From an uncultured Gammaproteobacteria bacterium (lineage in GTDB: Bacteria; Patescibacteriota; Patescibacteriia; UBA1558; UBA10009): a stretch of DNA of 64,000 nt. Within the stretch, counting starts at the first letter, position 1. Each line of letters starts with the position of its first letter. The DNA is taken from the NCBI GenBank assembly GCA_964588165.1, contig CAZPMS010000002.1, positions 15,951 through 79,950 of the forward strand, in the 5' to 3' direction. A program made the translations under genes and the position numbers. Under the pieces are notes generated by a model. That model was not told the origin of the DNA, made no database searches, and was given only the letters and a program-made list of their open reading frames with translations. Shown here piece by piece: positions 18,239 to 64,000 of this stretch.

Positions 18239-19021
18239 ATGGATGCAACAAATCCAGTTGGATCTGACGGCCGCACGTATCATTTGCAGACGCGCAAAGG
18301 TGATCTTGCTGAACATTGTTTACTTGTGGGTTCGCCCGAGCGAGCGAAGATGGTCGCAGAGACTATGTTTGAGTCTGCTAAACTTGTTGGCGATCATCGA
18401 GGCCTTAAGACGTTCACCGGTATGGTGAATAATGTGCCAATATCGGTGGTTACAACTGGTATGGGTAGCGCGTCGATGGCCATTGTTCTGCCCGAAGCAT
18501 TCTACTCGGGTGCCAAACGTTTTATCCGTGTCGGTTCATGTTCAACGCTCTGGCAAGAGCCGAGTCCTGGCGATTCAGCTATCTGTTCCGGTGCGGTGCG
18601 CTTGGATGGTGCCAGCGAGAACTGGGCGCCGATTGAGTTCCCGGCTGTGCCTGATTTCCGGGTTGTGAGTGCCATGGTGGAGGCGGCAGAGTTGCTTTCT
18701 CTTCCATATCATGTCGGCATTGGCGCCACAACCACCTGCTTTAATGAGGGGCAGGCAAGGCCTGATAGCTCGGGCTACCTCCCACCTCGGCTTAAGATGA
18801 TGCATGATGAGCTCGTCCAGCGTGGTGTTCTTTTCTACTCAATGGAAGAGGCGACACTGTTCGTATGGTGTTCTACCCATGGCAGGGATTTGTGGGCCGG
18901 TGCAGTAGACGCTATCTTTGGAAACCGCCACACCAACGAACTCAAGGTCTGCGGTGAGGAGGAGGCAGCCAAGATTGCTATTCGCACCCTACTCATTATC
19001 AGCGAGCGCTACCCGTTGTAA
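18239..19021 (+). CDS. Nucleoside phosphorylase, PNP/UDP family (DeoD-type purine nucleoside or uridine phosphorylase-like). High-GC gene.
   Basis: LLVGSPERAKMVAETMFESAKLVGDHRGLKTFTGMVNNVPISVVTTGMGSASMAIVLPE and FIRVGSCSTL resemble DeoD GDPLRAKYIAE...RGMLGFTG and IIRVGSCG. RBS aggagg. GC is about 57%, against about 35% for the host. Confidence 0.8.
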   Translation: MDATNPVGSDGRTYHLQTRKGDLAEHCLLVGSPERAKMVAETMFESAKLVGDHRGLKTFTGMVNNVPISVVTTGMGSASMAIVLPEAFYSGAKRFIRVGSCSTLWQEPSPGDSAICSGAVRLDGASENWAPIEFPAVPDFRVVSAMVEAAELLSLPYHVGIGATTTCFNEGQARPDSSGYLPPRLKMMHDELVQRGVLFYSMEEATLFVWCSTHGRDLWAGAVDAIFGNRHTNELKVCGEEEAAKIAIRTLLIISERYPL

Positions 19022-19077
19022 CTCAGAGACGAGGGCGTCTGTTCATTCAACCAATATGTTTCATAATTGTTGCATGG

Positions 19078-19107
19078 AAGGCTCAATATTTTATTGAGTC
19101 TTTTTTA
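19078..19107 (+). terminator. Intrinsic terminator after the nucleoside phosphorylase gene.
   Basis: ggctcaatattttattgagtc hairpin plus tttttt. Confidence 0.6.
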
Positions 19108-19110
19108 TAC

Positions 19111-19161
19111 TTAAATAAAAAACCCGCTAATCTTGACAAAATTTAAAAAATGTGATATTTT
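19111..19161 (+). promoter_or_regulatory. Promoter cassette copy 1: 'cttaaataaaaaacc', 'ctaat', TTGACA (19133-19138), 17-bp spacer, TATTTT.
   Basis: The same module recurs at 19911-19963, and partly at 22065-22105. Confidence 0.5.
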
Positions 19162-19218
19162 ATGTAGTTATAAGTTTTAACACTAACGTTCTTTGCCATA
19201 AACCTAAGGGAGGTTCGC

Positions 19219-19872
19219 ATGCTTTGCAAGAAGAGAATGGTTGCGGACCTACTTTTTGCGGTCCAAATCATTTGTACGCTTGTCTTCGGCATAAAGCAAT
19301 TCATAAGAATGCTCACTGTTACTGAAGGGGTGAGTGTAAGTATGTTCTGGAGCTGGGAATTTTTCTTGGCTATCAATTTGATTTTAGTGCTTAAAGCACA
19401 CCGTAACCAACCGAGTAGGGCCACCCGCCAAACCATAATTAGTTATATCACCTGGATTGCCATGATCACTTTGGATTTAGGTGTTATGTATGTTAAGGAT
19501 GTGGGGGTGTGGAATGCTCGCGATAGTTGGTCAGCAATTTTGGTAGCAGTAGGCATTATAGCTACCTTGATAGTTGGCCGTTACAAGCACCTGTCCATTA
19601 CCGATCCAATGATAAAAACCTCTTTCGCAGTATTTTTTAAAGTTGTACCTCAAATCATTTGGGCTTACAATATAACTCTGATGGGCGGAGCAGGTTTGGC
19701 CGGGGCAGCTGTTATTGCCGGACATATAACTATTTTATCCCGAATCGGGCAAGTTTTGTTTATCATCGAGGAAGCAGGTTGGGATAGAAATAGAATTGGA
19801 GTTGCTATTAGTGAAATATCCAACGAGGTTAGTTGGCTGGTAGTAACTGTTGTTTGGGTTATTTACACATAA
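19219..19872 (+). CDS. 7-TM membrane protein, possibly a PnuC-like nucleoside transporter (low confidence). Elevated GC.
   Basis: RBS aagggagg. Seven hydrophobic segments. FWSWEF is an aromatic motif. Its position next to a nucleoside phosphorylase is the only other support. Confidence 0.4.
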   Translation: MLCKKRMVADLLFAVQIICTLVFGIKQFIRMLTVTEGVSVSMFWSWEFFLAINLILVLKAHRNQPSRATRQTIISYITWIAMITLDLGVMYVKDVGVWNARDSWSAILVAVGIIATLIVGRYKHLSITDPMIKTSFAVFFKVVPQIIWAYNITLMGGAGLAGAAVIAGHITILSRIGQVLFIIEEAGWDRNRIGVAISEISNEVSWLVVTVVWVIYT

Positions 19873-19910
19873 AAAGGCCCTTCTTCCATGAAGTTTGGGT
19901 CTTTTTTAAT

Positions 19911-19963
19911 TCTTAAATAAAAACCTACTAATACTTGACAAAATATTGAATATATGCTATCAT
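19911..19963 (+). promoter_or_regulatory. Promoter cassette copy 2: TTGACA 19935-19940, 17-bp spacer, TATCAT 19958-19963.
   Basis: 'cttaaataaaaacctactaatacttgacaaaat' parallels copy 1. Confidence 0.5.
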
Positions 19964-20055
19964 ATTATGATGCTTGAAATAGGTTCAAGTATCAAAGATG
20001 TCCCACTACCGACCACAGCCAAGATGCTGGGCGGAAAGAAGAAAGGGATACACCC

Positions 20056-20715
20056 ATGATCAGGATTTCGATTGATCCGAAAACGGTTGAGGGGCTTATA
20101 GGCTCCAACAAAGCCGAGATGAAGCGGTATGGTACGGAAGGTAATAATTATGTAGAGATTTGTGGGCTACATTTTTCCCGCGGATCGTGTGATGGATCTA
20201 TTGATCCCTGGACGAAGGATATTCATGAATCTCTGTCGGAAGTTTTGCCACTTCCTGAAGATCTTCCTGTACAACGCATCTCGGTGCATGTCCAGTTTAT
20301 CGCCCATCCCAGACGAGACAGGGGGGCTTATAAACTGGGAACGGCATCGGCAGAACTTGAAGTGAACACTCATCTCAATTCTAACGGCAATCATGAACTC
20401 AAGATGATTGCTGAAGGAGGCAAGCCAAATGAGATGCTCACCCATCTAAAGGAGCTGGAGCTGGCCATTAAGACTGGCAATCTGGATGAGGTAATCATGA
20501 CTCATTCTTTCGAGAATGATCAGGTTACGGAAGCCGATTTCAAGGCACCTCCGGGAATGTTCAGGATCATTCATGAACACAAGGACGGCGAACTGGAAAT
20601 CGTGGCCGATTTCGAAAGGCTCAATTTCGCCAAAACTTCATTAAGTGCTCTTCGTGAGCAGAATGAAGATGACTTTTTCACCCTTTGTGATAACAAAGGA
20701 AAAATAGAGGAGTAA
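20056..20715 (+). CDS. Hypothetical protein with elevated GC
   Basis: 219 aa with no recognisable motifs. GC is about 48%. It has its own promoter and an 85-nt leader, and a terminator at about 20748-20785. Confidence 0.5.
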   Translation: MIRISIDPKTVEGLIGSNKAEMKRYGTEGNNYVEICGLHFSRGSCDGSIDPWTKDIHESLSEVLPLPEDLPVQRISVHVQFIAHPRRDRGAYKLGTASAELEVNTHLNSNGNHELKMIAEGGKPNEMLTHLKELELAIKTGNLDEVIMTHSFENDQVTEADFKAPPGMFRIIHEHKDGELEIVADFERLNFAKTSLSALREQNEDDFFTLCDNKGKIEE

Positions 20716-23199: not shown

Positions 23200-26100
23200 A
23201 TGAAAGAATTATCTAAATCATATCAGCCAGATAAACACGAAAGCTCAATTTACCAAAAATGGGAAGAGTCCGGGTTTTTTAATCCCGATAATTTGCCAGG
23301 CAAGCGCAAGAAAGTTTTTTCTGTTAGCCTGCCGCCGCCCAATGCTACCGGCATTTTGCATATTGGCCATGCTTCGATGCTGGCTTACCAAGATATTATG
23401 GTCCGGTACCATAGGCTAAAAGGTGATAAAACTTTGTGGTTGCCCGGAACAGACCACGCAGCCATTGCCACTCAAACGGTGGTAGAAAAAAAATTAATCA
23501 AGGAAGAAAAAAAGCGCAAAGAAGATATTGGCCGAGAAGAGTTCAGAAAAAGAATAGATAAATATGTAGAAGAATCCCGTGGCACCATCCGTAAACAGCT
23601 CCGGGCCATGGGCTCATCTTTAGATTGGTCTAGAGAAAGATTTACCTTAGATAAAGATTTATCATTAGCAGTTAGAACAGCTTTTGCGAAAATGTATAAT
23701 GATGGACTAATTTATAGAGGTTATCGGATTGTTAATTGGTGCCCGCACTGTAAATCCACTTTAGCTGATGACGAAGTTGAGTATAAGGAACAAAAGGCCC
23801 CGTTTTATTATTTTAAATACGGTCCGGTGGTTATTGGTACAGCCAGACCAGAAACTAAATTTTCTGATAAAGTAATTATTGTTCATCCTAAAGATAAGCG
23901 TTTTAAAGATATCGCAGGTAAGGAATTTGAAGTGGAATGGATTAACGGCAAGATTAAAGCAAAAGTTATTACCGATGAAGCAGCTGATATGGAAATGGGA
24001 ACCGGGGCCATGACCATTACTCCGGCCCATAGTTTTGTAGATTTTGATTTGGCTCAAAAATATAAATTAAAGGTAGAAGAAATAATTGATAAAGATGGAA
24101 ATTTAACAGAAGTTGCTGGTGAATTTGCTGGTCAACCAGCTGCTAAAGCCAGAGAGAAAATTGTTAATAAGCTGGCCAAGAAAGGCTTAGTTGATAAAAT
24201 TGATGAAGATTACGTCCATAATTTATCTCTTTGTTACCGGTGTAAAACGCCTATTGAACCGTTGCCTTCTAAGCAGTGGTTTGTTGATGTAAATAAAAAG
24301 ATTCCAAAAAAAGGCAAGTCATTAAAGCAACTGGCCTCCGATGTAGTCAAAAATGGTGATATAAAAATAATTCCTGATAAATTCAACAAAACTTATTTCC
24401 AGTGGATGGATAATTTAAGAGATTGGTGTATTAGCCGCCAAATTTGGTATGGACATCAAATTCCGGTTTGGTATAGGGACGCAAAAGCGCAAAAGCGCAA
24501 AAGCGCAAAAAAGGAGCAAGATATTATTGTACCTAAAGAAATAACTGAAATCAATCTAATGCGCCACGGTTTAACTGATTGGAACAAAGACCAAAAAATT
24601 CAGGGCAGAACTAACGTGCCTCTAGATGAATCCAGCGTAGATAAAATTAATAAAATAATGCCTCAGTTAAGGTCAGAAAATTTTGATATAATTATTAGCT
24701 CACCCTTAATGAGAGCCAAACAAACGGCTGAAATTGTAAATAAACAATTAAATCTGCCTTTAATAGAAGATGAATTATTGGTTGAAAGAAATTATGGTAA
24801 ATTTGAAGGGAAAAAAGTAAATGATATAAAAAATGACCATCCTGATTATGCCAAGGATAAAATTAATTATGATATCCCAGGAGATGATGAAGAAACCTAC
24901 CAGGAGATTGCTCAAAGGCTGAAGAAGTTCATTAAACAAGTAAGTAAAGAATATCCTAACAAGAAAATTTTAGTTATATGCCACAATGCAGTTATCAGGA
25001 CTTTCAAGATGATAATAAAGGATTCCTCACCTAAGGAACTTTCTGGCTATAAACCTAGTTTTGACAAGTTGGTTAAATATCAAATTTTAGATGGTAACTA
25101 TAACCTAAAAGGTGTTGAGCAAGATCCTGACACTTTAGATACCTGGTTTTCATCTTCACTTTGGACATTTAGTACTCTTGGCTGGCCAGATAAAACTGAC
25201 GATCTTAAGGCTTATCATCCAACCAGTGTTATGGAAACCGGTTATGACATTTTATTTTTTTGGGTGGCCAGAATGATACTTATGTCCGAATACCTTTTAG
25301 GCCAGAAACCTTTTGAAACAGTTTACCTCCACGGCTTGGTTAAAGATAAAGAAGGCAGGAAGATGTCAAAGTCGCTTGGCAATGGCATTGATCCAATAGC
25401 CATGATTGATAAGTTTGGCACTGATGCTTTGCGGTTGGCTATGATTGTAGGAGCCAGTGCCGGTAATGACATCAGGCTTTACGAAGAAAAGATAGCCGGC
25501 TATAGGAACTTTGTTAATAAACTTTGGAACATCAGCCGCTACATATTATCTACTGTTGGACAAGTTAAACCAATTGAAAAATTGCCAGAAGCAAAAACTT
25601 TAGCTGATAAATGGATTCTTTTAGAATTTAATCAAATCGTAGAATCAACCACTGGTAATATTGAACAGTTTAAGTTCTCTCAAGCCGGTGAAGAGCTTTA
25701 TGAATTTACTTGGTCTAAACTGGCCGATTGGTATTTGGAAATCGCCAAGGTTGAAGAGGGAAAAGATGAGATCCTTTTATACATTTTAGAAAAGCTACTT
25801 ATTTTATGGCATCCCTTTTGTCCGTTTATTACAGAAGTTATTTGGGAGATATTTAAGACAGATAAGCTATTGATGATTAAAGAATGGCCGGAAATAAAGA
25901 AACAAGATATAAAAAACAAGATACAAGATGAATTTGAAAAAGTTCAAGAGATTGTTTCAGCTATCAGGAACACCAGGGCAGAACATCTGGCTAATCCCAA
26001 AAAAGTTTATGGTTGTTCTATAAAAACTTCAAAGAAAAAAGTGATTGAAGAGAATAAAAATATAATTGAAGCTTTGGCCAAAATTAAAATTATTCCTAAG

Positions 26101-26334
26101 GCCACTGGCGTTGCTATTAATCTTGCTTGGGCTGACATGATTTTAGATATTAAGGAAAATAGGGAAGTGGCCAAAAATAAAGCTAAAGAAACTGTAAATT
26201 TAGAACGTTATATCCAAATCCAAGAAGCAAAATTAAGGAATAAAGATTTTACTAAAAAGGCTCCACCTAAAGTGGTGGAGGAAGAAAAGGAGAAATTATC
26301 GCAAGCAAAAGAAAAGTTAGCCAAATTAAAATAG
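23200..26334 (+). CDS. valS: Valyl-tRNA synthetase carrying an inserted histidine-phosphatase (PGAM-like) domain.
   Basis: HIGH motif (PPPNATGILHIGHA). WCISRQIWYGHQIPVWY. KMSKS. C-terminal coiled coil. About 213 extra aa lie between PVWY and DPDTLDTWFSS. They contain LMRHGLTDWN (RHG), GKFEG and ICHNAVIR, the catalytic motifs of the histidine phosphatase superfamily. Confidence 0.9.
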   Translation: MKELSKSYQPDKHESSIYQKWEESGFFNPDNLPGKRKKVFSVSLPPPNATGILHIGHASMLAYQDIMVRYHRLKGDKTLWLPGTDHAAIATQTVVEKKLIKEEKKRKEDIGREEFRKRIDKYVEESRGTIRKQLRAMGSSLDWSRERFTLDKDLSLAVRTAFAKMYNDGLIYRGYRIVNWCPHCKSTLADDEVEYKEQKAPFYYFKYGPVVIGTARPETKFSDKVIIVHPKDKRFKDIAGKEFEVEWINGKIKAKVITDEAADMEMGTGAMTITPAHSFVDFDLAQKYKLKVEEIIDKDGNLTEVAGEFAGQPAAKAREKIVNKLAKKGLVDKIDEDYVHNLSLCYRCKTPIEPLPSKQWFVDVNKKIPKKGKSLKQLASDVVKNGDIKIIPDKFNKTYFQWMDNLRDWCISRQIWYGHQIPVWYRDAKAQKRKSAKKEQDIIVPKEITEINLMRHGLTDWNKDQKIQGRTNVPLDESSVDKINKIMPQLRSENFDIIISSPLMRAKQTAEIVNKQLNLPLIEDELLVERNYGKFEGKKVNDIKNDHPDYAKDKINYDIPGDDEETYQEIAQRLKKFIKQVSKEYPNKKILVICHNAVIRTFKMIIKDSSPKELSGYKPSFDKLVKYQILDGNYNLKGVEQDPDTLDTWFSSSLWTFSTLGWPDKTDDLKAYHPTSVMETGYDILFFWVARMILMSEYLLGQKPFETVYLHGLVKDKEGRKMSKSLGNGIDPIAMIDKFGTDALRLAMIVGASAGNDIRLYEEKIAGYRNFVNKLWNISRYILSTVGQVKPIEKLPEAKTLADKWILLEFNQIVESTTGNIEQFKFSQAGEELYEFTWSKLADWYLEIAKVEEGKDEILLYILEKLLILWHPFCPFITEVIWEIFKTDKLLMIKEWPEIKKQDIKNKIQDEFEKVQEIVSAIRNTRAEHLANPKKVYGCSIKTSKKKVIEENKNIIEALAKIKIIPKATGVAINLAWADMILDIKENREVAKNKAKETVNLERYIQIQEAKLRNKDFTKKAPPKVVEEEKEKLSQAKEKLAKLK

Positions 26335-59487: not shown

Positions 59488-61119
59488 TTAATCATTTTTA
59501 TTTAATGATTTTACCATATAAGTTTCTTGTAATCTATATCCCAATTTGCGGTAGTAGCCTCTTACGCCAATGCCAGAAATCACAGCTACTTTATTTAATC
59601 CATGTTTTAAAGTTAAGTCTTCAGCAATTTTCATCATGCGTTTGCCAAAACCGGTGTGCTGGACTTTAGCCTGTTTGGATTTAACCGGCACCAACTGCCC
59701 GTAAGTATGGACTTCTCTAACTAAAGAGGCATTTTTTAATTCCGGTAGAGCCGCGGCTAAACCCGCGTCTAAACGGTCGGGGTCGTTTATTCTGAATCTT
59801 AAAAAGGAATAAAGTTTATCACGTTTGGGTGATTCATAAGAAATAAAATATTCTATACCATCAGAAGCTTGATATTTTTCAGTAAACAGTTTGGCTTTTT
59901 TTATATCGTCTAAACTTTCTCTGGTTTCCCGGCAGCGCATGCACTTACATTTTAACTTTTGTTTTTTAAGTTCAGCTTGCAAGTACTGTCGTAAGTTTGT
60001 AATCTTATTTCCAGCTTCTATACTTTCTTTAGGGATATCACGAATTAGTCTGTTTATTCTAACGTAATATGGTACAGCCTGTTTTATTTTTAAAAGTAAG
60101 TTTAAAAGTTGTTTTTCTGAATAAGGTTTATATTTATCCGATTTATACCATTTGTAGAGTGGGGCGAATTTATTAACCACCGTAGGATAGATTTTTATTT
60201 GGTCGGGCTGGAATCGTTGATCAGAAAAAACAGTTTTAAACATTTTTAAATCCTTGGCTGGGGTGGAGCCTGGCAGGTCGGGCATTAAATGGTAGTCAAC
60301 CTTAAAACCGGCTGACTTTAATAGTTTAGTAGCTTTAGCTGTCTGTTCAACGGTATGTCCGCGTTTAACATATTTTAAAATTTTATCATCCAAATGTTGG
60401 ACGCCCATCTGAATTCTGGTACATCCCAGTTCCCTTAGCCTTTTTACTTCAGCTTCATTAATTAAATCTGGCCGGGTTTCTAAAGTCATGCCGATAATTC
60501 TATACTTGGCAGTCTCATTTATTTTTTGAGCCTCTTTTAAAGTTTTAGAAGTTTTGCCTGTCCTGAGCGAAGTCGAAGGGCGATTACATACATCAAAACA
60601 CTTTTTTATAAACCACTCTTGGTATTTATTGTCATAAGCAGACCAAGAACCGCCCAGTACCAACAGCTCAATTTTATCAACTGTATGGCCGTTAGCCTCC
60701 AAGGCTTTAATTCTCATTTTAGTTTGTTTGGCGGGGTCAAAATCCAAGGCTTTGGCCCGCTGGGCGGCCGGTTCATTAGAAAGGTAGCTTTTAGGCATGC
60801 CTGGCTCTAAAGGGCAGTAAACACAGTTGCCGGGGCAGAAAAACGGCTTAGTAAGCACTGTAACGGGAGTTACTCCAGAAAGAGTCCGGGTAATCCTTTT
60901 AATTAAGTACTGCCTTAACTTTTCTACTGTTTTATGGTTAAATTGGTTTAAGGTCTTTTTATCAAGTTTTTTAAAAGCTTCGATTAATTCAGAGTTAGGT
61001 GCTGGCGGAAGCTTATGCTGACCTGATAGCTTTTTCTTTAAGTACAAAAACTCGGCATAATTTTTGGGATCTGCCTTTAAAAGAGATAAAACGATTTCTT
61101 TATTGATAATTTTAGTCAT
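59488..61119 (-). CDS. elp3: Elp3-family radical SAM / GNAT protein (tRNA U34 carboxymethyl-uridine synthase homolog).
   Basis: FFCPGNCVYCP radical-SAM Cys motif. C-terminal GNAT GFGKRMMKIAEDL...VISGIGVRGYYRKLGY. An in-frame family C repeat encodes PSTSLRTG. Confidence 0.8.
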   Translation of the reverse strand: MTKIINKEIVLSLLKADPKNYAEFLYLKKKLSGQHKLPPAPNSELIEAFKKLDKKTLNQFNHKTVEKLRQYLIKRITRTLSGVTPVTVLTKPFFCPGNCVYCPLEPGMPKSYLSNEPAAQRAKALDFDPAKQTKMRIKALEANGHTVDKIELLVLGGSWSAYDNKYQEWFIKKCFDVCNRPSTSLRTGKTSKTLKEAQKINETAKYRIIGMTLETRPDLINEAEVKRLRELGCTRIQMGVQHLDDKILKYVKRGHTVEQTAKATKLLKSAGFKVDYHLMPDLPGSTPAKDLKMFKTVFSDQRFQPDQIKIYPTVVNKFAPLYKWYKSDKYKPYSEKQLLNLLLKIKQAVPYYVRINRLIRDIPKESIEAGNKITNLRQYLQAELKKQKLKCKCMRCRETRESLDDIKKAKLFTEKYQASDGIEYFISYESPKRDKLYSFLRFRINDPDRLDAGLAAALPELKNASLVREVHTYGQLVPVKSKQAKVQHTGFGKRMMKIAEDLTLKHGLNKVAVISGIGVRGYYRKLGYRLQETYMVKSLNKND

Positions 61120-61828
61120 GAATAAATCAGAAAAAGTATTAAATCAGGTTAAAGATGGTTACAATAAAATTGCTGACCATTTTTCCAGCACCCGCCACGC
61201 TCCTTGGCAGGAATTTGAGCTGTTTGCTGATTATATCAAACCTGGCCAAAAAATTCTAGATCTGGCTTGTGGCAACGGTCGGTTGCATAAATATTTTAAG
61301 GATAAGAAACTGGAAGTTGATTATTCTGGTTTGGATAATTCAGAAAATTTAATTGATATCTGCCGTCAAAAATATCCAGAAATATCAGATAAGTTTAAAG
61401 TTGGTGGAATGACTAAGCTGCCGTATCAGGAAAATCAATTTGACGCAGTTATCTGCATTGGCAGTTTTCATCATTTACCAAGCAAGAAATTAAGACTCAA
61501 AACTTTATCAGAAGCTCGTAGGGTTTTAAAACCGGGCGGATATTTGCTTATGACCAATTGGCATTGGCAGCATTGGCCTTTTTGGAAACATTTTTTTAAT
61601 AATTTTTGGCAAAAAAACTCACCATTGGATTTCTTTTTTCCTTGGAAATCTGCTGATGGCCAAAAACAGTGCTTAAGATATTATCATGTATTTACTAAAA
61701 AGGAGTTAAAAAGTTTGCATAAAAAATCAGGTTTAAAAATAATTAAGCTTTTTCCTGATTTGGATACTCATAACAAAAAAGTTTACAAAAGAGGGGTTAA
61801 CATTGTGAGTATTGCTAAAAAAATATAA
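61118..61828 (+). CDS. Trm9-like class I SAM-dependent methyltransferase. The start is probably MNKSEK, internal to the ORF-track call 61064..61828.
   Basis: YNKIADHFSSTRHAPWQEFE (compare Trm9 Y..IA.HFS.TR...W). ILDLACGNGR SAM motif I. DAVICIGSFHHL. Confidence 0.65.
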   Translation: MNKSEKVLNQVKDGYNKIADHFSSTRHAPWQEFELFADYIKPGQKILDLACGNGRLHKYFKDKKLEVDYSGLDNSENLIDICRQKYPEISDKFKVGGMTKLPYQENQFDAVICIGSFHHLPSKKLRLKTLSEARRVLKPGGYLLMTNWHWQHWPFWKHFFNNFWQKNSPLDFFFPWKSADGQKQCLRYYHVFTKKELKSLHKKSGLKIIKLFPDLDTHNKKVYKRGVNIVSIAKKI

Positions 61829-61967
61829 TAAAAAAAGGCGCAAAAAAATTTGCGCCCTTAGTTTGACTGGTAAATATATTTCGGATATAGTTAAACCCGC
61901 AGAACGGAAAATGGAGCCTTGTATCTGGTGTGCAAATTAGATATTTTGGTTTCCAGCCGTTCTGCTT

Positions 61968-63341
61968 TTAGTTAAAGCAGACAGAGTTAAAGTAAGCGTC
62001 TCGTGCGCCGTGTACTACCGGCGATTTGCGAGCATGGAATTCCGCTCCTGCGAGTTTGCTTCCGAAAATATAGATACCGTATTTTGAAAATAGTTTGATG
62101 GTTTTTGTTCCGACCTCTGCATCAGCCACCAGCCGTTCTTCTACCACTTTGTAGACTTGCTGGACTATGCTGCCGGAGCTAATGGTTTCCATGGCATCTT
62201 GCCATTTTTTTTTGCCCATGGTTAAGCCAAGATACATCCGGCGGGCAGAAGAGCTGGCCGGATCTTTTATAACCCACTGTTTGCGTTCAAGTTCAGATAA
62301 GGCAATGTTGCCCTGACCATTTGGGAAATTAACAAAGCCGCTTTCAACCAAGCCAATGGGCACAAAGACATCATCCAATACCTGATAATCGTCTTGCAGA
62401 TACTCCCGGAAGATGGGCGAAAACTGTTCAAGACGGTAGAGGTACATCCAGACCTTGTTACCCAAAAACCTTCTAAAAAGGGGAGAAAGCACGCAGCGGT
62501 TTTGTGGGTAATTTTCTTTGAGAATGTTAAAGGCAGGGTCTCCTTCCTTGATCCTGCTTCTTAAAACTGCGGAAGGTTCACAGTTAAGCTGATCTGGCCC
62601 GATCATTTCGGCATTAAAACCACTGCCGAGCAAACACTTGTAAAGTGTTTGGAAGTTGTGCCAATCACCGTCAGTTGGGCGGGTAACCACTTTAAATGGC
62701 GTGGATTCACCGGGTAGGTTTTTGTCAGAGCACCATTCGTCAACACATTGTTTGATGATACTGGCAAAACTGCTGCCAATATCTGGACATAGTCCAAAGT
62801 CGTCGCCACAAGCGGCCTGGAAATTCATTAAGTCGCCAGCTCCAGCCGGCCGAGTGGAATTGATATCCATAACTTTAAAGCAGTCGCCGACCAATACAGC
62901 ATCTAGCCGGATAAAGGGATGAATAGTTTGGTAGCCGGGATCAGTTAATCCTTTGTCCCACTCTTCCTCAGTACACAGGCTTTTTATCAGCTCTGTATCT
63001 GGTGGATTAAGTTGCCCGGTTTTAGCCAGCCTAAATATTTCCAGTTGGGCGGCTAAAAGTTTGGGCCAGGCCCTGGCAACGGCCTTTAGCTGGCTCAGCT
63101 GTTCAGGGGTAAACTTTACCGGTTCAAGTACTGGTTGAATAACTTCTTCAACCATCTGGCCGGCGCTGGTTTCAATGATCCTAGTTGGTGAAGGATAGGG
63201 ATATCCTTTTCCGGTTAAGGCTTTAAACCTTTCCGGATGGTAGCGATACACCAAGTTGTTTTGCAGCAACTGCTGCAGCATTTCGTTAACCTGACTGTTC
63301 TTCATGGCCGATCTCCTTTTGTTTACTTGGCCTTTTTTCAA
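61968..63341 (-). CDS. Glutathionylspermidine-synthetase-like ATP-grasp protein (YgiC/YjfC family) with elevated GC (about 50%).
   Basis: IHPFIRLDAVLVGDCFKVMDINSTRPAG (compare R.D....G.K.lE.NaDTP). 457 aa. Confidence 0.55.
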   Translation of the reverse strand: MKKGQVNKRRSAMKNSQVNEMLQQLLQNNLVYRYHPERFKALTGKGYPYPSPTRIIETSAGQMVEEVIQPVLEPVKFTPEQLSQLKAVARAWPKLLAAQLEIFRLAKTGQLNPPDTELIKSLCTEEEWDKGLTDPGYQTIHPFIRLDAVLVGDCFKVMDINSTRPAGAGDLMNFQAACGDDFGLCPDIGSSFASIIKQCVDEWCSDKNLPGESTPFKVVTRPTDGDWHNFQTLYKCLLGSGFNAEMIGPDQLNCEPSAVLRSRIKEGDPAFNILKENYPQNRCVLSPLFRRFLGNKVWMYLYRLEQFSPIFREYLQDDYQVLDDVFVPIGLVESGFVNFPNGQGNIALSELERKQWVIKDPASSSARRMYLGLTMGKKKWQDAMETISSGSIVQQVYKVVEERLVADAEVGTKTIKLFSKYGIYIFGSKLAGAEFHARKSPVVHGARDAYFNSVCFN

Positions 63342-63376
63342 AATACTTGTTGTAGTTGTAAATGAGCGAACTTTAT

Positions 63377-64000
63377 TTAAACGCCAAGACTGGCGATTTT
63401 GCTTCCGGTTCTTACCACTCCTTTTTCTAAGATAGTCATAATTATTCCGTTAGCAGGCGCCGTAATTTCTATTGGTTTAAAATCAGGCAATTGATAAATT
63501 ATACCTATGGGCTGGCCTGTTTTAATTTGATCCATAACTTTTACTTTGGCTTCAAATAATCCGGCAAAATTAGAATAGATAAATTTGGCTGAATATTGCT
63601 GGCAGATAATTTTATCACTAACTAAATCAGGATAGCTTTTAAAAATATTAATTATACCGTTGGTTACATCATCAACAGCTTTATTTTTAATCAGCTGGTA
63701 GTTAGGCATTTCAATAAAAACAGAGGGAATATTTATTTTATTTAATTGGCCATTTAAAGAACCTTTAAACTTAGAATCATTTTTTGAACCTTCATCGGTT
63801 TTCCAGACAATTTCCGGATTAAGCCCATTTAGTAATTTGTTAGTTTTTTTCTGAACAGGATCTTGGCTGGCGGAATAGCCTGCAATAAAAGGCGATTGCC
63901 TATTGGAAAATGTGTGCAGATCAATAACAAAATCTTGTTTTTGGCAAATTTCAAAAATATTATTAGCAAGTTTGGAGGTGAAGTCACCTTGTTGGCTACC
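63377..64000 (-). CDS. AstE/AspA (succinylglutamate desuccinylase / aspartoacylase) family protein, partial. The N-terminus lies beyond the window end, and the ORF-track ATG at 63709 is internal.
   Basis: The frame stays open upstream of 63709: ...DFVIDLHTFSNRQSPFIAGYS...IPSVFIEMPNYQL... Confidence 0.45.
   Translation of the reverse strand, partial: GSQQGDFTSKLANNIFEICQKQDFVIDLHTFSNRQSPFIAGYSASQDPVQKKTNKLLNGLNPEIVWKTDEGSKNDSKFKGSLNGQLNKINIPSVFIEMPNYQLIKNKAVDDVTNGIINIFKSYPDLVSDKIICQQYSAKFIYSNFAGLFEAKVKVMDQIKTGQPIGIIYQLPDFKPIEITAPANGIIMTILEKGVVRTGSKIASLGV

Follow-up and report, generated by a model that had tools for sequence, protein, structure and literature searches.

A Patescibacteria-restricted gene pair encoding a predicted permuted ATP-grasp amide ligase and an AstE/AspA-type zinc hydrolase

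The stretch of DNA analysed here, called the window, comprises 64,000 nucleotides of assembly GCA_964588165.1 (contig CAZPMS010000002.1, positions 15,951 to 79,950), which GTDB assigns to the Patescibacteriota. Two co-oriented genes lie at its end on the minus strand: an upstream gene encoding a zinc hydrolase of the AstE/AspA type, and a downstream gene (61968..63305, minus strand) predicted to encode a circularly permuted ATP-grasp amide ligase of 445 amino acids, from an undescribed family restricted to Patescibacteria. A sequence-only reading of this DNA had described two adjacent genes on one strand with the ligase gene first. The adjacency and the common strand were confirmed, but the order along the predicted transcript is the reverse, hydrolase and then ligase. 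The window has a guanine-plus-cytosine (GC) content of 36.7% and contains housekeeping genes (gyrA, a class-I aminoacyl-tRNA synthetase, uvrD, and genes for serine hydroxymethyltransferase (SHMT), a NUDIX protein, an Elp3-like protein and a methyltransferase).

The mechanically called open reading frame (ORF) of the ligase spans 61968-63341 and opens at a TTG at 63341. Translation most likely starts from the ATG at 63305, which yields the 445-residue protein, because all 25 ligase homologs start at the position of Met13 of the long form, residues 1-9 of that form are disordered in the structural model (predicted local distance difference test, pLDDT, <50), and a strong Shine-Dalgarno sequence, AAGGAG (63318-63313), lies 7 nucleotides ahead of this ATG. 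The intergenic spacer (63306..63376, minus strand) measures 71 nucleotides, and no terminator-like site was found in it on the minus strand. Orthologous spacers range from 21 to 71 nucleotides, and each carries its own AGGAG or GGAGG while the rest of the spacer is unconserved. The 3' part of the hydrolase gene occupies 63377..64000 (minus strand, 207 codons plus the stop); its ORF continues past 64000, with the N-terminal ~90 codons outside the window. About 110 nucleotides past the ligase stop, a terminator-like hairpin (61834..61859, minus strand; 11 pairs followed by a T-run) matches the consensus, and the Rfam scan gave only sub-threshold noise for it. This hairpin probably ends the two-gene transcript and is probably common to the convergent methyltransferase gene. 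The layout fits a single predicted hydrolase-ligase transcript with separate ribosome-binding sites.

Our analysis uncovered a strict physical linkage between the two genes. The hydrolase gene was directly upstream of the ligase gene, co-oriented and 21-71 nucleotides away, in 11 of the 11 loci with a readable upstream side (the window and the loci labelled L001, L003, L005, L008, L010, L012, L013, L020, L021 and L022). The ligase orthologs whose neighborhoods were read cover an identity range of 32-64% and sit in five or more distinct surroundings. A twelfth locus (L014) has its upstream gene truncated where the contig stops, yet this gene aligns with the hydrolase partner. Pairwise identities of ligase and hydrolase correlate (Spearman 0.71), and no third conserved gene was found across the 11 loci. 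Because the linkage is strict and the identities are correlated, with no third gene conserved, the pair behaves as a single inherited unit; the ligase-hydrolase pairing noticed in the sequence-only reading is thus real.

The ligase family has escaped the profile libraries that we searched. The window protein matched no Pfam, NCBIfam or PADLOC model and had no match to Pfam GSP_synth (PF03738) at E-values up to 1. Among the 26 family members, GSP_synth matched one (E 0.029), the Pfam GSH_synth models matched none, and CP_ATPgrasp_2 and CP_ATPgrasp_1 gave best E-values of 0.0098 (2 members) and 0.0023 (1 member), all below the gathering threshold; the window ligase itself matched neither of the last two. 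Searches of PDB sequences with phmmer and with the family profile returned noise only (a kinase, E 0.022). Twenty-five ligase homologs were found among 5.8 billion clusters, with annotations that are absent or read "hypothetical," and every named source is a member of the Kerfeldbacteria or Patescibacteria. A profile search of 1.84 billion representatives gave 34 clusters at E <1e-30, then a gap, then weaker matches (E 1e-13 to 1e-18) that Pfam places as borderline CP_ATPgrasp_2/_1 proteins. The family comprises ~34 clusters when grouped at 50% identity. In a pattern scan across 185,579 species genomes, five loci turned up, four labelled Patescibacteria or Parcubacteria group and the fifth just "MAG: bacterium." The ATP-grasp assignment of the ligase holds at the fold and distant-profile level only, and the CP_ATPgrasp link of the family is transitive only, via distant relatives.

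The AlphaFold model of the ligase is of high predicted quality (pLDDT 90.8; predicted template modeling score, pTM, 0.91), and the permuted ATP-grasp fold spans the whole chain. Foldseek ranked eukaryotic-type glutathione synthetases (GS) first (E 5.6e-17, template modeling score 0.66), followed by homoglutathione synthetase, nematode GS-like effectors, YjfC/YgiC, GspS, 3n6x, and trypanothione synthetase (TryS); E-values for glutathione synthetases, YjfC/YgiC, GspS, 3n6x and TryS ran from 5.6e-17 to 1e-8. The ligase is roughly equidistant from all described families of the superfamily, with identities of 11-14%, a range that includes the eukaryotic-type GS (2HGS/8FBZ, yeast 1M0W) and homoglutathione synthetase. 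The description of the protein as a GSP-synthetase-like ATP-grasp enzyme is correct at the superfamily level, but its assignment to the YgiC/YjfC type is not, as those hidden Markov models (HMMs) were unmatched, GSP_synth included, and glutathione synthetase, Cp1B and 3n6x are all at least as close to the protein as YgiC.

To place the active-site residues, we relied on an enriched profile (A3) made of the ligase family and its distant relatives, which matches 3n6x (1.2e-17), Cp1B (5.7e-7), GspS (2.2e-5) and YgiC (2.6e-4). In the A3 alignment, ligase R145/D147 correspond to GspS R316/D318, D159/N161 to E330/N332, R164-P-A166-G167 to S335-A-S337-C338, and K296 to K498, while K359 and Q394 fall on a Lys and a Gln conserved in 3n6x and Cp1B. 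For GspS, the functions of these residues were reportedly described by Pai and colleagues in 2006. R145, D147, D159, N161 and K296 are invariant in the 26 ligase sequences and K359 is present in at least 90% of them; with the distant relatives added, the sole invariant columns are the R, the D, K359 and Q394. The ligase thereby carries the signature R-x-D, then [D/E]-x-N (predicted to bind Mg2+), and two lysines predicted to bind ATP. In human GS the arginine of the matching motif, R125, forms a salt bridge to the reacting carboxylate (PMC6297838). The human GS loop reads S149-A-S151, whereas the ligase loop reads S-T-R164-P-A-G after D-I-N, with the limit that most ligase/GS residue equivalences come from motif inspection and not from a significant alignment. 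The arginine in place of the substrate-loop serine, together with the invariant R261, R263, K265 and R291, suggests an anionic acyl substrate.

The window fragment of the hydrolase (207 codons) scored 26.0 bits against Pfam AstE_AspA_cat (PF24827; cut-off 25, E 7.6e-6), in agreement with the earlier description of an AstE/AspA zinc hydrolase running past the window end, and the full-length orthologs scored 76-93 bits (E 1e-21 to 1e-26). The orthologs carry the motifs HGGE, RNE...NLNR, DLHT and IEMP. The window fragment includes H120 (DLHT) and E188 (IEMP), while H37/E40, R77 and N87/R88 were read in the orthologs, that part of the window gene falling beyond 64000. CphZ has the Zn triad H50/E53/H179, the catalytic Glu E251 and the carboxylate-binding residues R102/N112/R113 (PMC9974463), and the hydrolase residues H37/E40/H120, E188 and R77/N87/R88, respectively, correspond to them. 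The family profile can be aligned over its full length with 2qj8 (1.8e-40) and DoeB (1.4e-30), and the protein has a two-domain fold, a catalytic domain followed by a C-terminal hybrid barrel. The equivalog cut-off of NCBIfam DoeB TIGR02994 (402.7 bits) was not reached by the orthologs (57-74 bits) or the window fragment (20 bits). Identity of the hydrolase to DoeB (N-acetyl-2,4-diaminobutyrate (N-acetyl-DABA) deacetylase, 6TWM) and CphZ (beta-Asp-Arg dipeptidase, 8EIN) is 17-23%, and neither ectoine nor cyanophycin genes lie near the hydrolase here. The hydrolase belongs to a distinct Patescibacteria subclade of ~50 clusters within the branch of "predicted deacylases" around DoeB/CphZ in the AstE/AspA (M14-like) superfamily. 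Judged by these residues, the ligase looks like a catalytically intact permuted ATP-grasp enzyme and the hydrolase like an intact zinc amidohydrolase of the carboxypeptidase type.

We tentatively propose, with a rough probability of 0.45, that the two proteins would form an opposing synthetase/amidase couple and control the amount of a single small amide metabolite, for instance an iso-dipeptide or an N-acyl-amino acid. The ligase would activate the carboxylate of its substrate as an acyl-phosphate, with D159/N161, K296 and K359 holding ATP and Mg2+ and R145 holding the carboxylate. Attack by an amino group, most likely that of an amino acid, would follow and yield an amide X-CO-NH-CH(R)-COO-, and the hydrolase would cut the same type of bond, freeing the amino acid. 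We infer an ATP-dependent ligation, one bond for both enzymes, an amino-acid nucleophile and a small-molecule substrate. The shared bond would most likely be acyl-NH-CH(R)-COO- because the hydrolase keeps a clamp for a free alpha-carboxylate and its characterised neighbors release DABA or Arg/Lys. If so, the nucleophile of the ligase would be an amino acid, as in GS and Cp1B, rather than a polyamine, as in GspS/YgiC. The same clamp makes the polyamine modification considered in the sequence-only reading less likely than amino-acid ligation. The linkage in all 11 loci and the chemical compatibility of the two predicted active sites support a couple acting on the same bond.

There are precedents for such an arrangement in this superfamily. 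A synthetase is combined with an amidase in TryS/GspS (PMC2427367), and Cp1B ligates a carboxylic acid to an amino acid (PMC12568646). The pair resembles the fused synthetase-amidase GspS/TryS and the logic of cyanophycin CphA/CphZ, but GspS/TryS carry their amidase as a fused domain, a CHAP cysteine hydrolase, and the amidase of the present pair is an AstE/AspA zinc enzyme encoded by its own gene. Spermidine is the substrate ligated by GspS and YgiC/YjfC, according to the passage of PMC12568646 that cites Pederick 2023. Compared with these spermidine ligases, the carboxylate clamp of the hydrolase points to an amino acid as the leaving group. Unlike eukaryotic-type GS, the ligase is bacterial (Patescibacteria) and is always paired with a zinc hydrolase. 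It differs from the CP_ATPgrasp_2/_1 proteins (COG2308-type, 3N6X) and from fungal Cp1B (9CJN) in that no more than 2 of the 26 members reach CP_ATPgrasp_2, at E ~0.01 and below gathering. Iyer and colleagues are said to have reported in 2009 that COG2308 genes usually occur with alpha-E and transglutaminase-like genes; such neighbors are absent beside the ligase here.

Several observations weigh against the proposal of an opposing couple. Making and breaking one bond from one operon is a potential futile cycle. The gene context gave no clue to the substrate. An Rfam scan for a riboswitch or leader upstream of the cassette and in the spacers found only tRNA and tmRNA (transfer-messenger RNA) genes in nine loci, and no riboswitch ahead of the cassette. 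An hhalign comparison of the ligase family with human GS (a sequence 100% identical to 2HGS) covered only eight columns, those of the KVIDINS/KQIEINT motif, at a probability of 0.2. Since it covers this one motif, the residue mapping rests on the GspS, 3n6x and Cp1B alignments of A3. Finally, the glutamate after the second lysine of GS (E368 in 2HGS), which we take to be a Mg2+ ligand, has no obvious counterpart in the KDPASSS loop of the ligase.

Because of the potential futile cycle, sequential salvage would account for the pair nearly as well, and we rank it second, at a probability somewhat below that of the opposing couple. Here the hydrolase would free an amino acid or carboxylate from a scavenged N-acyl amino acid or iso-dipeptide and the ligase would couple the product onward, so that both enzymes run in one metabolic direction and are not opposed. 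Candidate substrates would be host- or community-derived beta-Asp-Arg-like compounds or N-acetylated basic amino acids. Operons usually encode consecutive steps, and in every locus the hydrolase gene precedes that of the ligase. With their small genomes, Patescibacteria are widely regarded as relying on scavenging. An M29 aminopeptidase gene follows the pair in L005-L007, the only loci where this neighbor was seen, and a co-oriented argS comes after it in L005, L008 and L021. DoeB and CphZ, the characterised enzymes nearest to the hydrolase, serve catabolism or scavenging and liberate DABA or Arg/Lys (PMC9974463). Against salvage, the pair has no conserved transporter or additional pathway gene beside it, nothing in the data points to a second substrate, and the match between the predicted ligase product and the predicted hydrolase substrate is explained equally well by an opposing pair.

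A second alternative, which we regard as improbable, is a tagging cycle in which the ligase would attach amino acids, singly or several, to a protein or a ribosomal peptide, at its C-terminus or on an acidic side chain, and the hydrolase would trim them. The analogues would be RimK or tubulin ligases as the writer and cytosolic carboxypeptidases as the eraser, as in tubulin tyrosination and glutamylation, where pairs of an ATP-grasp writer and an M14 eraser are established. The commonest context of the pair lies among translation genes (ssrA-smpB, infC-rpmI-rplT, argS), and such a cycle could be a Patescibacteria-specific version adjoining translation and trans-translation genes. No conserved small ORF or candidate target gene lies beside the pair, however. 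Elsewhere, RimK genes may neighbor COG3608 deacylase genes; a literature search on RimK with desuccinylase gave nothing useful.

The base composition of the ligase gene had led the sequence-only reading to call it foreign, and the pairing of the two genes had led it to suggest, among other possibilities, an antimetabolite with its immunity enzyme. The GC content was put at about 50%; we measured 46.7%, against a mean of 37% for the window ORFs (z 2.4) and 33% for the hydrolase partner. At third codon positions the GC fraction (GC3) is 0.48 versus 0.32 for the other window ORFs (z 2.85). The ligase gene exceeds its neighbors and its partner by 5-11 GC points, mostly GC3, in 11 of 11 loci (the window, L001, L003, L005, L008, L010, L013, L014, L020, L021 and L022), even though the GC content of the neighboring genes varies from 33% to 59% across these loci, and its GC3 is at or near the top in each. 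Gene order in L001 is identical to that of the window from uvrD through the pair. Identity to L001 is 65% for the ligase and 50% for the hydrolase, versus 69-83% for seven flanking orthologs, which suggests faster evolution or allelic replacement of the pair. The cassette had no match in phage and plasmid collections. A recent horizontal acquisition is unsupported because the excess is found in all loci, synteny is conserved, and no phage or plasmid match was obtained; the GC excess is a lineage-independent trait of the ligase gene itself. Codon bias driven by expression does not obviously account for it, as GC3 of rplT, rpmI, infC and smpB from these loci is below that of the ligase gene.

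The idea of a horizontally acquired ligase for an antimetabolite or peptide modification, with the deacylase as self-immunity, would fit the GC excess over the window and the faster divergence of the cassette relative to its flanks. It is nevertheless highly improbable, since the excess occurs whatever the GC content of the genome and is not shared by the partner, the setting is housekeeping with conserved synteny, there is no phage, plasmid or PADLOC match, no exporter, transporter or other biosynthetic gene is conserved across the 11 loci, and the family is confined to one bacterial group. Still harder to credit is a ligase that is simply a divergent glutathione (or homolog) synthetase next to an unrelated housekeeping hydrolase, as no Pfam GSH_synth match was obtained, the loop carrying S149/S151 in human GS and S335/S337/C338 in GspS reads R164-P-A-G, its strict association with the hydrolase speaks for a shared function, and a glutamate-cysteine ligase was seen in no neighborhood.

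Neither the fold nor the chemistry is new, and combining a ligase with an amidase is a known idea. What is new is a ligase family unrecognised by HMM libraries, its obligatory partnership with a separate DoeB/CphZ-like zinc hydrolase, and its restriction to Patescibacteria. These bacteria, also known as the candidate phyla radiation (CPR), make up a large share of bacterial diversity and have ~1-Mb genomes with very little metabolism. Because the pair is strictly conserved in such metabolism-poor cells, it probably marks an indispensable function. With the ligase, the glutathione-synthetase/GspS superfamily, a source of redox buffers, polyamine conjugates and natural-product amides, gains a new family; the hydrolase is from the DoeB/CphZ branch, whose enzymes liberate basic amino acids. 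The pair could make and degrade a new low-molecular-weight amide (an iso-dipeptide or N-acyl basic amino acid), a signature metabolite of ultra-small bacteria. Naming the product would give a function to two families of hypothetical proteins and could reveal a new small metabolite or modification. The two-gene module is easy to express and a directly testable target in a poorly understood phylum, and the odd GC signature of the ligase gene is a side puzzle.

The wider neighborhoods differ among the loci. In the commonest one (L005, L008, L021 and L022; ssrA-smpB, the pair, then argS), the pair lies downstream of, and divergent from, ssrA (the tmRNA gene, found in all four) and smpB, at L005 3144-3544, L008 3512-3911, L021 4895-5281 and L022 4864-5264. 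The smpB gene was called in L008, L021 and L022, and for the L005 lineage only in the near-identical L006/L007. In L022 the sequence breaks off immediately past the ligase gene, and argS was not reached. L005 has three tRNA genes a short way ahead of the hydrolase gene. The other contexts are Elp3-methyltransferase-NUDIX-SHMT (the window, L001 and L003), fmt-def (L010) and an ABC (ATP-binding cassette) transporter with a flavin mononucleotide (FMN) reductase (L020). A gene for an Asp/Glu racemase adjoins the pair in L001 only, and a radical S-adenosylmethionine (SAM) gene with an overlapping ORF of 129 amino acids in L008 only. A link to folate, based on SHMT, FolD or Fmt genes nearby, was found in two independent contexts only and was downgraded to a weak lead.

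A sister family is represented by P0056 (L023 3-2916), a circularly permuted ATP-grasp protein of 508 amino acids that matches the ligase family profile with an E-value of 3.8e-20. It has no AstE neighbor; its gene is preceded by a co-oriented Peptidase_M20 fragment and a co-oriented family 2 (GT2) glycosyltransferase gene. Here again a ligase lies close to a metal-dependent hydrolase of deacylase type, but in one case only.

Three further features of the window were recorded. The Elp3-like gene (59488-61119, minus strand; radical SAM, Radical_SAM_C and a weak GNAT domain) divergently abuts the gene for a class-I SAM methyltransferase (61118-61828, plus strand), and this pair is kept in three related loci, the window, L001 (9318-11597) and L003 (15591-17919). 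A second GC-high patch at 18239-20715 (plus strand) consists of three ORFs of 54%, 42% and 46% GC against a background of 37%; the first encodes a PNP_UDP_1 phosphorylase, the other two are without a Pfam match, and the patch may be real foreign DNA. The class-I aminoacyl-tRNA synthetase gene (23200-26334, plus strand) encodes a protein of 1044 amino acids with tRNA-synt_1, Anticodon_1 and Val_tRNA-synt_C domains, in which residues 452-616 match His_Phos_1 (E 1e-40) inside the span of the two tRNA-synt_1 stretches.

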